This document shows, piece by piece, positions 19,352 through 40,442 of a stretch of 64,000 bases of DNA. The position numbers and the translations under genes are program-made. This DNA comes from Candidatus Tayloriibacteriota bacterium (GTDB taxonomy: Bacteria; Patescibacteriota; Minisyncoccia; Phycocordibacterales; UBA6065), in NCBI GenBank assembly GCA_016215405.1, contig JACRJQ010000008.1, forward strand, positions 25,866-89,865. Direction: 5' to 3'. Each line of letters begins with the position of its first letter. Position 1 is the stretch's first letter. The notes under the pieces are model-generated. The model searched no databases. It was not told the DNA's origin and saw only the letters and a list, made by a program, of their open reading frames with translations.

Positions 19352-20855
<1,504 letters not shown>

Positions 20856-21260
20856 AAACCGCAGATGGAGATCCCGAAGGACTTCTATCTGAGGCGAACG
20901 GAACAAAATAGATCACAGTATGCGAACTATCTTCTTCCTGGGAGATTCACGGGTGCTTTCCCGCCTCCACGATCCTATGGAGCATGGGGTCGAAAGCCCT
21001 CTTACAAATTTTCATTTGAATAGAGCCTACCCTCATGCTTATATCCGAAGAATACACTTGAACTTGCACAATACAGTTAGGATACTGTTTTACCAGTACA
21101 CTTTAACTTGCATTTGTTCTCTCCGCCGTGGCCAATGTGGCCCGGCGGAATTGATTATCTCAATATTTCAACGATCTCCTCACTAAGAGACCGAGGGAAT
21201 CAAAAAGTGCTTTACCAGCACTTTCTGACGTCCCACAAGGCTCTCAATGAGGTAAGGGTA

Positions 21261-36420: not shown

Positions 36421-36543
<123 letters not shown>

Positions 36544-36742
36544 CTCAATCCTCGCTATTTGAAACACAACAGATAAATATGAATTCTGAGAAAAGACAGT
36601 AAGCCTGAGCTTCCTGTGATTTCTAAATTTCCTAATAAGATCGGGTAATTAGTACTTCTCGGCTTAACACATTACTGTGCTTACACCTAAAGCCTATCAA
36701 CCTAGTAGTCTTCTAGGGCCCTCAAACGATTCCTTATCTTGG

Positions 36743-36785
<43 letters not shown>

Positions 36786-36921
36786 GACATAGCTACTCTG
36801 CGTTGCCACGGGCGTGACAGCAGATAGACCAGCGGTCCGTTCACTTCGGTCCTCTCGTACTAGAAGCAAAGCTCCTCAAGAATCAACGCCTGCAGTAGAT
36901 AGGAGACCAACCTGTCTCACG

Positions 36922-37200
36922 CTTCTTTTCGCATGTTGCCATGCGGAATGGACTATATCTTCATCCTTATTTATTTATTCATAAGGAGATCAACGTGTAG
37001 TCTCTACGGACGGGAACCCGCGCTCCCTTTCCTCGGTATTGCCCCCAATCATCTCCATTGTGGGTTTTACCGATATTAGTTGATGACGTACATGAAAGTT
37101 GCCCTTCATGACCGCCGTGATTGGTTGTGTCTCGTTTGTTTGTCCTTGATGTCCGAGGGATTCAGACTGTAGAGCCTATAATCTTTCGATTATGTTCTCC
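36922..37200 (-). other. ~280-nt ORF-less insertion (putative group I intron) in 23S at the E. coli ~2593 (I-CreI) site.
   Basis: It interrupts the conserved gctgggttcagaacgt|cgtgagacagg. The exon sequence resumes precisely on both sides. Confidence 0.55.
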
Positions 37201-37860
37201 ACGGTCTGAACCCAGCTCACGTGCCTTTTTAATTGGCGAACAGCCAAACCCTTGGGACCTTCTCCAGCCCCAGGATAAGACGAGCCGACATCGAGGTGCC
37301 GAACTCCGCCGTCGATATGAACTCTTAGGCGGAACGAGCCTGTTATCCCTAGAGTAGCTTTTGTCCGATAATCTTCCCCCGCATCTAATGCGTAAGGTCG
37401 GTTCACTTAGCTCTGCTTTCGCATCTGCTCGACAAGTACGTCTTACAGTTAAGCAAGTTTATGCCCATACACTATCGCCACGGTTTCCATTCGCGGCTAA
37501 CTTACCTTAATAGGCTCCTCCGTTACTTTTTAGGAGGATAGCGCCCCACTAAAACTACCCACCAGATACTGTCTCCCGCGGTTTTTGCCCTCGGGGTTAG
37601 AACATACAACGGCGAAGAACGCTATTTCACTGGCGACTCCATGCTGGCCGAAACCGCACTTCAAAGTCTCACGTCTATGCTACGCATCGCAATCGTATGC
37701 TCAATATCAAGCTGTAGTAAAGCTTCTAGGGTCTTTTCGTCTAACTGCAGGTACCCGGCATCTTCACCGGGATTGTATTTTCACCGAGCTGTACTTCGAG
37801 ACAGTTGCCCAGACGTTACACTATTCAACGCGTCAGAACTTACCTGACAAGGAATTGCGC

Positions 37861-38073
37861 TCAACTATTCCTCAGAGTTGGACTCTATCTTCAGCCTCTC
37901 TTTTAAGGGAGTAGGCTGCGCGGCGTTGGTCTCTATTTGACCGCGTACGGACTGACGGTGCATTACTGCCACCTCAGGTAGCTATCTGTGTAATTTCTAT
38001 TAGGCTCTTATTTATCAACACAACTATAGATCCGTCCCAGTCCTTCTGCATCCTTCCGAAGAAAGATGCAGAA
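37861..38073 (-). other. ~210-nt ORF-less insertion (putative intron) in 23S at the E. coli ~1925-1931 site.
   Basis: It interrupts the conserved ggtcctaagg|tagcgaaattccttgtcgg. The flanking sequence matches E. coli on both sides. Confidence 0.5.
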
Positions 38074-38917
38074 CCTTAGGACGGTTATAGTTACCGCCGA
38101 CATTCACCAGGGCTTACATTCATCAGCTTGATATAATCGCACCGCAAATGGTTGACCTTCTGGCATTGGTCAAGTGTCACCCCCTATACATCCTCTTACG
38201 AGTTCGCAGGGAGCTGTGTTTTTGATAAACAGTCGCCAGGCATACTTTAGCTGCGGCCCCTTGAGTAAACAAAGGGCAAGCCTTATCGCTAACTTACGGC
38301 TGCTTTTTTGCCGAGTTCCTTGAAGTACCTTCACTCGTTCGCCTTCGTCTTCTCGACGTGATCACCTGTTTCGGTTTTCGGTACGGATCACCTCCGGTTG
38401 TGCTTAGAGACTTTTCTTGAAAGCGCGCTTTGCATAGTTCCCCGTAGCAAGCTACGGCTTCCCTCCTGTCTTTAGGCTCGCTAATTGAATAGCTGCTTGC
38501 GGGATTTTCCTCGCAAACGCCCTCTGACCAAAGACCCCAATCCAATAAGGGGCTACGCATACTGTGCTCCGTCATCCCATCGCACCGGGTGTGAGTCACG
38601 GAATATTAACCGTGTGTCCATCAGGTACGGCTTTCGCCATCCCCTTAGGCCCGACTAACCCTTCGCTGATATCCATTGCGAAGGAAACCTTAATCTTTCG
38701 GCGTGCGGATATCCCATCCGCATTGTGGTTACTTGTGCCAACATTCTTACTTCTCTACGCTCCAGCATGGGTCACCCCTTTGCCTTCAGCGCGAAGAGAA
38801 TACTCTCCTACCAGAACATCTATACGAATATAGATGCAATCCTCAGTTTCGGTATCATGCTTTAACCCCGATCATCTGCGGCGCAGACTCTCTAAGTGAG
38901 TGAGCTGTTACGCTTTC

Positions 38918-38949
<32 letters not shown>

Positions 38950-39529
38950 TCACCGTCGAAGAAAATCCACCACCTCCCTTGTACTTAGCATGAATTTTGG
39001 GACCTTAAATTGAGATTCGGGCTGTTTCCCTTTTGTCTAATGGAGCTTAGCCCCCACAGACTTACTGCCGTTCTTTTGACCAGAGGTATTCGGAGTTTGA
39101 TAGGTTCTGCGATCTTTCGACCTGTCAGAATCTTCCAGTGCTCTACCCCCTCTGGGAACGAACGACGCTATGCCAAAACATATTTCGGAGAGAACCAGCT
39201 ATTACCGAGTTCGATGAGCTTATCACTCCATACCACATGTCATCGCAGAGTATTGCACGTCTCTAGCGTTCGGTCCTTCCTCTATCTTTCGACAGAGTTC
39301 AACCTGCACATGGCAAGCTCACCCGGCTTCGGGTCTGATACGTACTACTTTGTCGCGCTATTCACACTCGGTTTCCCTGCGGCTCCGGGCATTCAAGCCC
39401 TTAGCCTTGCAGCACGCATCAACTCGTTGGCTCATTCTTCAATAGGCACGCCGTGACGGTAATAAATTACCGCTCCGACTCCTTGTAAGCATATGGTTTC
39501 AGTTCTATTTCACCTCCCTCTCCGGGATA

Positions 39530-39569
<40 letters not shown>

Positions 39570-40442
39570 TTCTGGAATATTTAGCCTTAGCGGTTAGTTC
39601 CGCCAGATTCCCTCAGGCTATTCGTGTCCTGAGGTACTCAAGAATGGCAATAAAAGAGGTGTTTCGCTTTCGCGCACGGGACTATCACCCTCTGGGGTCT
39701 GTCTTTCCAGACAATTACGCTAACGAAACACTTTGTAACTCTTTCCACTATAAATAGTGACACTGCCACCTTACTACCCCCGATCTTAATCGCGTCCTAC
39801 GTCTTGCGACATAATCCGCGATTAAGACCGAGTTTGGGCTATTTCGCTTTCGCTCGCCACTACTAACGAAATGTTGTCGACATACATCGACATTGTTTTC
39901 TCTTCCTCCTGGTACTGAAATGTTTTACTTCCCAGGGTACGCTCATTCATGTCAAGCATGAATGTCTCTGGTATCTCTACCAGAGGAGTTGCCTCATTCG
40001 GAAACGACCGGATTAACGCCTGTTCAGCGGCTCCCCGATCATATCGTTGCTACACAACGTCCTTCATCGCTTCTCAGAAGCCTAGGCATCCACCATATGC
40101 TCTTAAATTTCCTATTAGGAAATTTAAAAACCACTTAACTTCTCTCAATGATATCGGCCTGCTTACAACAGACCGACATACAATTCATTTTTACCTGTTG
40201 CCCGTTTCTTTTGGTAAAGAAACGGTTTATCTCGATCTACCGTCTATAGATAGATGAGAATCGTCTCGCGCTCTTCTTTTGACGGGCCGACCTGGCCCTA
40301 AGCGCGTACGGGGTTTCGTTTTCAAATAACTCTCTGAAAGAAAAACCGCTCTTCGGAGAGCGGCATCGGAACAGGGCCAAATCAATGGCCTATTTGATGC
40401 GCGTTCTCTTAAGGGGATTCAACATATTCAGAGGTAGCCATA

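Follow-up and report, generated by a model that had tools for sequence, protein, structure and literature searches.

Insertions occur in 82% of CPR 23S rRNA genes, 45% of those being group I by Rfam, and those associated with LAGLIDADG genes gather at hot spots around the peptidyl-transferase centre, namely at positions 1917, 1931, 1952, 2593, 2604 and 2657 (Tsurumaki et al, 2024, PMC11270868). The same survey cites Brown et al (2015) for the removal of CPR 23S insertions from transcripts. In cyanobacteria, introns at L1917, L1931 and L2593 have been described (Haugen et al, 2007, PMC1995217), and those at L2593 share their site and their J8/7-P7 core both with Cr.LSU, the I-CreI intron of the Chlamydomonas chloroplast 23S rRNA gene, and with the intron presented here. 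However, Cr.LSU and the cyanobacterial L2593 introns are ~745-890 nt long and contain a LAGLIDADG gene and P7.1/P7.2, whereas the intron presented here measures 279 nt and has neither (PMC1995217). The CPR introns of the survey come from the same host group, the same gene and the same hot spots, 1931 and 2593, are likewise detected as group I by Rfam and likewise show a mosaic presence and absence among relatives; yet the survey stresses LAGLIDADG insertions and offers no helix-level structure, whereas in our ORF-less copy P1-P10 and an extra helix, PA, could be placed (PMC11270868). In its size, its lack of an ORF, its complete P3-P9 and P4-P6 and its GNRA loops on P2 and P9, the intron resembles the Azoarcus/Anabaena and CPR tRNA introns of ~200-280 nt (PMC13011429), which however sit in anticodon loops, are unrelated to the LAGLIDADG rRNA lineage and have no 5' exon-clamp domain.

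Here, we use covariance-model searches, folding, alignment of homologues and genome and metagenome scans to analyse this insert, and we argue that it is best explained as an ORF-less L2593 group I intron with standard splicing, an exon clamp and I-CreI-type kinship, a reading that we hold, taken as a whole, with a probability of about 0.9. The one point of a preliminary description of the locus that needs correcting is novelty, since 2593 and 1931 are already on record as sites at which CPR 23S rRNA genes frequently contain introns: the L2593 intron is an ordinary CPR feature that will not surprise a specialist, and its recognition is a correct and useful annotation.

In the window, by which we mean the whole stretch of 64,000 nt that was analysed, the 23S rRNA gene with its two introns occupies positions 36628-40120 of the minus strand, as established with the Rfam model LSU_rRNA_bacteria (RF02541, 2256 bits) and by alignment to E. 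coli 23S rRNA, and all intron and exon coordinates below refer to this strand. The gene is 3493 nt long, compared with 2925 positions in the Rfam model. E. coli numbering was taken from a global alignment anchored at H69, the sarcin-ricin loop and G2582, which places an insertion of 279 nt (36922-37200) exactly between U2593 and C2594, and a second large insertion of 211 nt (37862-38072) between U1931 and A1932. The exon flanks of the first are GGGUUCAGACCGU and CGUGAGACAGG, and position 2593 lies in helix 93, in the peptidyl-transferase centre. The preliminary description had reported an insertion of ~280 nt at 36922-37200, which the E. coli alignment shows to be exact to the base, and had assigned it to the I-CreI/2593 site, which also stands, as the insert follows U2593 and sibling introns encode I-CreI homologues (E 3e-21). 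It had however quoted an E. coli-like exon, gaacgt, where the actual exon has C at 2590; in helix 93, this departure from E. coli (A2590C) is matched by a compensating U2604G, as read from the sequence. Neither the minus strand nor the 211-nt insertion after U1931 had been mentioned there. Removing exactly 36922-37200 produces a 42-mer that is present uninterrupted in 15 metagenome contigs, and the boundaries of the L2593 insert are therefore unambiguous.

Several lines of analysis support the assignment of this insert to the group I introns. The Rfam model RF00028 matches intron nt 81-272 over its full length with 44.1 bits, at an E-value of 3.4e-10 locally and 6.1e-8 window-wide; the curated gathering score is 50, P1 and P7 are not part of the model, and the window's copy has short peripheral loops. 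The minimum free energy (MFE) fold of the insert has a z-score of -6.2 relative to shuffled sequences and recovers P2, P3, P4, P5, P6, P8 and P9. All proposed P1-P10 pairs are canonical in the window sequence, and the core from P3 to P9, including the P3/P7 pseudoknot and the P4-P6 domain, could be placed completely and with support from the family. All sequence-level checks proposed in the preliminary description favoured its group I reading, which is supported by the RF00028 search that it had suggested (3e-10 locally, 6e-8 window-wide), by a fold in which P1-P10 and a guide sequence can be identified, by covariation across 42 homologues and by intron-less relatives.

The covariation was assessed in an alignment, A1, of 42 introns with the CPR type of exon and no ORF, together with their exon flanks, representing 41 distinct sequences. 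In the proposed structure 89.2% of the alignment cells are paired and the covariation score is 0.388; in slid controls, with the 3' partners moved by 1-3 columns, the values are 32-42% and 0.07-0.10. Compensatory changes on both sides are present in 41 of the 68 pairs. None of 500 shuffles matched the observed values; related sequences inflate the shuffle statistics, whereas the slid controls are unaffected by them. For a structured RNA, evidence drawn from sequences alone can hardly become stronger.

How is the ribozyme laid out? The 5' exon segment C2590-U2593 (CCGU, 37201-37204) provides the exon strand of P1, with the 5' splice site after 37201, and pairs with G86-G89 of the guide UCACG-GCGG (nt 81-89, 37112-37120). 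The other part of the guide, U81-G85, pairs with the 3' exon segment C2594-A2598 (CGUGA, 36917-36921) to give P10, and in the family P1 and P10 are 98.8% and 91.7% paired, respectively. Directly 3' of the 5' splice site, the MFE fold has a hairpin with a GAAA loop (nt 1-30, 37171-37200); its sequence differs among relatives, and the region is poorly conserved in A1. A search of the insert on its own gives a weak LSU-model alignment in which nt 30-36 (UACAGUC) fall on GACAGUUC, the 3' strand of helix 93 (37165-37240, minus strand); the intron of this copy has a mimic of the strand with which the 5' exon strand naturally pairs. Downstream of the guide, the P2 hairpin with its GCAA tetraloop (nt 92-109, 37092-37109) has compensatory changes in all seven pairs, as does P3 in all six of its pairs, formed between AUCAAC (nt 117-122, 37079-37084) and GUUGAU (nt 207-212, 36989-36994) and 94.7% paired. 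In the P4-P5-P6 domain (nt 128-193, 37008-37073), P4 is 96% paired, the proximal pairs of P5 and P6 covary, and P6 is a small hairpin of 25 nt at the place where sibling introns hold an endonuclease gene.

The 5' strand of P7, GAGACUA (36998-37004), is invariant in 41 of 41 sequences, and the helix joins G197 and, across the bulged A198, G199-A203 to U246-C251. J8/7 (UGAAGAUA) together with the 3' strand of P7 (UAGUCC) spans 36950-36963, follows the Rfam core consensus with posterior probabilities marked by an asterisk, and is invariant in the family. The same invariance and agreement with the Rfam consensus hold for G197, the bulged A198, the pair G199-C250 and UGAAGAUAUAGUCC. In group I introns a bulged A and a G-C pair of P7 have a role in the guanosine site, and by analogy A198 and G199-C250 would form the guanosine-binding site here. 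Between the 5' strand of P7 and the 3' strand of P3 there are only three nucleotides (CAC), leaving no P7.1/P7.2; in A1, a P7.1/P7.2-type extension is present in four rows (L093, L043, L100 and L073). P8 (nt 214-237, 36964-36987) covaries in five of seven pairs, with a distal part that is poorly aligned and 62% paired, and P9, with a GCAA tetraloop (nt 256-271, 36930-36945), in five of six pairs at 96.6% pairing. The intron ends with the terminal guanosine, omega-G (nt 279, 36922), after which lies the 3' splice site; this nucleotide is G in 42 of the 42 aligned introns.

The recognition of the 5' exon departs from that of the canonical L2593 introns. In the latter, where the exon is GAACGU, a single continuous P1 of 7 bp (GCGUUCU) is formed ~10 nt into the intron, whereas in the window's intron a P1 of 4 bp is combined with the extra helix PA. 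Across the CPR subfamily, P1 (CCGU/GCGG) likewise comprises only 4 bp at the family level. The U2593.G86 wobble at the 5' splice site is kept in 41 of 41 distinct sequences, and the guide reads GCGU where the exon of the intron is AACGU. PA pairs the 5' exon segment U2584-A2589 (UUCAGA, 37205-37210) with UCUGAA of the intron (nt 35-40, 37161-37166); 99.5% of its cells in A1 are paired, and exon and intron strands covary, with changes from C-G to U-A in seven sequences and from G-C to A-U in 13. Neither PA nor P1 is conserved when it is extended into the territory of the other. With the intron strand of PA located 5' of the guide, PA and P1 cross one another when drawn as a secondary structure; they may be stacked along the uninterrupted exon strand or form in succession. 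This arrangement suggests that PA acts as a clamp that holds the 5' exon and thereby compensates for the short P1. Two longer versions of P1 were considered and rejected: a long helix (UUCAGACCGUG/UACAGUCUGAA) that continues across the splice site with a U-A pair, which is possible in this copy and only 66% paired in the family, no better than shuffles, and a 6-bp P1 (GACCGU/GCGGUC), which is present in this copy with outer two pairs that are only 50% paired across the family.

The 5' exon-intron junction of this copy lies in a long helix, which speaks for an RNase III-type intervening sequence (IVS) that is excised without religation and leaves the 23S rRNA fragmented. Such sequences are likewise extra stretches of the bacterial 23S rRNA gene that are absent from the mature rRNA, and CPR 23S rRNA genes do contain short insertions other than introns at classic IVS sites (PMC11270868). 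However, they are simple hairpins at helices 9, 25 or 45, and 2593 is not among the known IVS sites, whereas the window's insert lies in helix 93 and has a full group I core, a guide and a terminal G instead of a single long hairpin; moreover, the family does not conserve the long helix that spans the splice site. We consider an IVS the least probable explanation of the insert, to be given next to no weight.

For a group I intron of this anatomy, standard splicing would proceed as follows. The guide UCACG-GCGG (nt 81-89) would form P1 with CCGU, the U2593.G86 pair defining the 5' splice site, while UCUGAA (nt 35-40) would pair with exon 2584-2589 and hold the 5' exon as a clamp. A free guanosine bound in P7 would then attack after U2593. 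Subsequently, G279 would enter the guanosine site and P10, formed by UCACG with CGUGA, would align the 3' exon, so that ligation of the exons would restore the helix 93 sequence GACCGU-CGUGAGACAGGUU. U2584/U2585 and A2602 belong to the peptidyl-transferase centre. Removal of the insert seems essentially obligatory, because it splits the strand that contains U2584/U2585 and that pairs opposite A2602.

This consideration also bears on the possibility that the insert is a lineage-specific expansion, or an unspliced insertion, that is kept in the mature 23S rRNA, which the preliminary description had named as the alternative to an intron. A precedent may be the L1931 group I intron of Simkania, which is reportedly unspliced (Everett, 1999, as cited in PMC11270868), and true expansions are present in the same 23S rRNA gene of the window, such as ~90 nt near position 284. 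Nonetheless, an expansion retained at this point would divide the 5' strand of helix 93 beside U2584/U2585 and A2602, close relatives are precisely without the insert, and a guide for both exons and an invariant terminal G would serve no purpose in it. We find that alternative unsupported by the guide, the terminal G and the intron-less relatives and regard it as very improbable.

Does the intron still splice by itself? It is a reduced form without P7.1/P7.2, and its autonomous activity is putative. One may envisage a degenerate group I intron that has lost self-splicing and needs a host protein or another RNA, for instance a co-resident intron. This would agree with the RF00028 score below the gathering score, with the absence of an intron-encoded maturase or endonuclease, and with the lack of P7.1/P7.2 and the short P1 (PMC1995217); splicing of the Thermotoga 23S intron is in fact protein-assisted (PMC3984707). 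However, the catalytic core of the window's intron is complete and matches the family-invariant positions, and the fold is kept by compensatory change across hosts with only ~75% 23S identity, which argues for ongoing selection on a ribozyme. In addition, many ORF-less introns of similar size do self-splice, for example in CPR tRNA genes (PMC13011429). We therefore consider degeneration unlikely and infer that the L2593 intron is catalytically active.

The preliminary description had also proposed a minimal, endonuclease-free form, and this agrees with our data. The largest start-to-stop ORF on the sense strand within the insert encodes 39 aa, stop-free stretches reach 60-61 codons and lack a usable start, and two ORFs of 76-78 aa merely clip the edge of the insert and lie mostly in the rRNA exon. 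A tblastn search of the insert with 32 endonucleases from sibling introns found no LAGLIDADG remnant. We also considered, and rejected, a degenerate endonuclease gene within the stretch of 78 nt that separates the guide from the 5' splice site, where tblastn gave nothing significant and which is not where the gene of the siblings sits. The ORF of the long sibling introns occupies the P6 loop, between P4-P6 and P7, and in some cases extends into P7. The encoded proteins of 145-205 aa contain a single LAGFLDGDGS motif and match Pfam LAGLIDADG_1, and one of them matches I-CreI over 133 residues (E 3e-21), as well as I-MsoI and I-CvuI. By these comparisons, the window's intron is a member of the I-CreI-type L2593 lineage that has no endonuclease, a relative of the mobile introns and not itself a mobile member; mobile introns of the I-CreI type, with a LAGLIDADG gene in the P6 loop, are either its ancestors or its sister group. 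As it has no endonuclease gene, the intron cannot home by itself, and within its clade it is probably inherited vertically.

How widespread are introns of this type? One genome of each bacterial or archaeal species was scanned for the J8/7-P7 core with CGUGAGACAG 12-42 nt downstream of it. At least 119 loci in these species-representative genomes have the same core immediately before C2594. Among the matches listed, most belong to Patescibacteria and Omnitrophota, with others in Eremiobacterota, Anaerolineae, Acidobacteria and Thermosynechococcus, and both junctions could be recovered for 88 loci. The lengths of these 88 among the matches listed are broadly bimodal, ~36 being of 233-317 nt and ~30 of 690-830 nt, with others in between, and ~30 of the 88 recovered copies carry a gene of the I-CreI-family LAGLIDADG type.

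The 23S exons of the window are 92.6% identical to those of a 'Candidatus Parcubacteria' MAG (L098) and 90.8% identical to those of a 'Candidatus Paceibacterota' MAG (L059), and the remaining CPR 23S rRNA genes compared have at most 79% identity to them. On these identities, the host can be placed among the Parcubacteria/Paceibacterota (CPR). DNA of the window is also present in the sequencing run SRR12113407. A chloroplast origin, which the I-CreI site might have led one to suspect, was rejected, as the window has 58% GC, bacterial genes and a 23S rRNA gene 92.6% identical to that of Parcubacteria MAGs. L098 and L059 both have homologous L2593 introns, of 309 and 460 nt, which are 75-78% identical to that of the window; the intron is thus diverging faster than the exons, consistent with a long residence in the clade.

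Metagenomes were scanned for the clade-specific intron-less junction, GGCACGUGAGCUGGGUUCAGACCGU joined to CGUGAGACAGGUUGGUC. It was found in 15 metagenome contigs, the three closest being L130, L135 and L131. L130 is 93.6% identical to the window exons over 1003 aligned nt, is without both introns and has an insert of ~300 nt near 2499. L135, at 88% identity, lacks the L2593 intron and has a 209-nt L1931 insert as well as inserts near 2258 and 2499, and L131, at 85.7% identity, is without both introns and has an insert near 2258. The inserts near 2258 and 2499 in these three contigs are about 300-340 nt long, and the window has neither. Within one clade of 86-94% 23S identity, introns at 1931, ~2258, ~2499 and 2593 therefore occur in differing combinations of presence and absence. 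The L2593 element is thus an optional one with precise limits, and the clade is mosaic in its intron content.

These observations have practical consequences for the annotation of this genome. The 23S rRNA gene measures 3493 nt, whereas the mature rRNA should measure 3003 nt, the length that remains, by arithmetic, when both inserts are taken out. Regions 36922-37200 and 37862-38072 need to be masked in rRNA binning, primer and probe design, phylogenetic placement and length filters; otherwise the organism will be mis-aligned or discarded. Beyond this, CPR bacteria are known to be rich in rRNA introns, and the locus contributes a further example with well-defined limits and an annotated structure.

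The remainder of the 23S rRNA gene differs from that of E. coli in smaller ways. The non-intron expansion of ~90 nt near position 284 (39731-39820, minus strand) falls in long hairpins of the Rfam alignment, expansions of 13-15 nt are located near positions 228 and 1507 (39877-39891 and 38480-38492, minus strand), and deletions of 7-15 nt near positions 879, 1728, 1752, 2784 and 2810. The 5S rRNA gene (36428-36535) lies downstream of the 23S rRNA gene, the two together spanning 40120-36428. The 16S rRNA gene (19353-20856) has the same orientation and no insertion, and it forms with tRNA-Ile a second unit (20856-18157); no tRNA-Ala was found in the region 18157-40120. [quoted passage not shown]

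Finally, the more interesting structural leads are the two-part binding of the 5' exon and the second insertion, a mini-intron without P4-P6, whose handling deserves the most interest at this locus. This 211-nt insert after U1931 (37862-38072, minus strand), with the exon junction CCUAAGGU/AGCGCAAUUCC, seems to be derived from a group I intron, as indicated by an RF00028 match of 24 bits (E 2e-4) and by covariation in its family. No further group I element was found in the window, for instance in tRNA genes, by the RF00028 search at E <= 0.05. Alignment A2 comprises 11 L1931 homologues of 193-229 nt, in which the proposed structure is 92.4% paired, versus ~40% for slid controls, with 31 covarying pairs. 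The mini-family has a hairpin directly 3' of the splice site and a guide, GYU-ACCU, that pairs with both exons (P1 and P10), and it keeps P3, P7, P8, P9 and the terminal G under covariation. Compared with the canonical L1931 introns L046, L011, L026 and L094, however, the whole J3/4-P4-P5-P6-J6/7 block is absent, and a canonical P4-P6 assignment for the insert was rejected because this block is simply missing.

The base opposite U1931 is A in 11 of the 11 mini-family members, so that the pair at the splice site is U-A rather than U.G. L046 and L087 share the 5' domain of the mini-family, keep P4-P6 and have G opposite U1931. In L046 (5150-5445), from a Paceibacteria MAG, this 5' domain and an intact P4-P6 are combined in an L1931 intron of 296 nt, which by the boundary call ends in A and not in G; this may be a 1-nt ambiguity or a missing omega-G, and one Coxiella intron is reported to lack omega-G.

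A 4-bp P1 crossed by an upstream clamp recurs in the L1931 insert, where exon 1920-1927 forms an 8-bp helix with the intron segment UGGGACGG across the mini-family. It is conceivable, and we put this forward tentatively, that compact CPR rRNA introns use an undescribed form of 5' exon recognition, consisting of a short P1 and a covarying clamp in a pseudoknot-like or sequential arrangement, a design that appears independently in the neighbouring P4-P6-less L1931 insert. Our searches of the accessible literature found no description of a two-part guide in CPR or of natural group I introns without P4-P6, which is not proof of their absence. Compared with its full-length form, an engineered td ribozyme without P4-P6 reacts ~1000-fold more slowly (Ikawa et al, 2000, as cited in PMC2879505). 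If it still splices, the L1931 element would be a natural counterpart of the engineered 'minimal catalytic domain' ribozyme without P4-P6.
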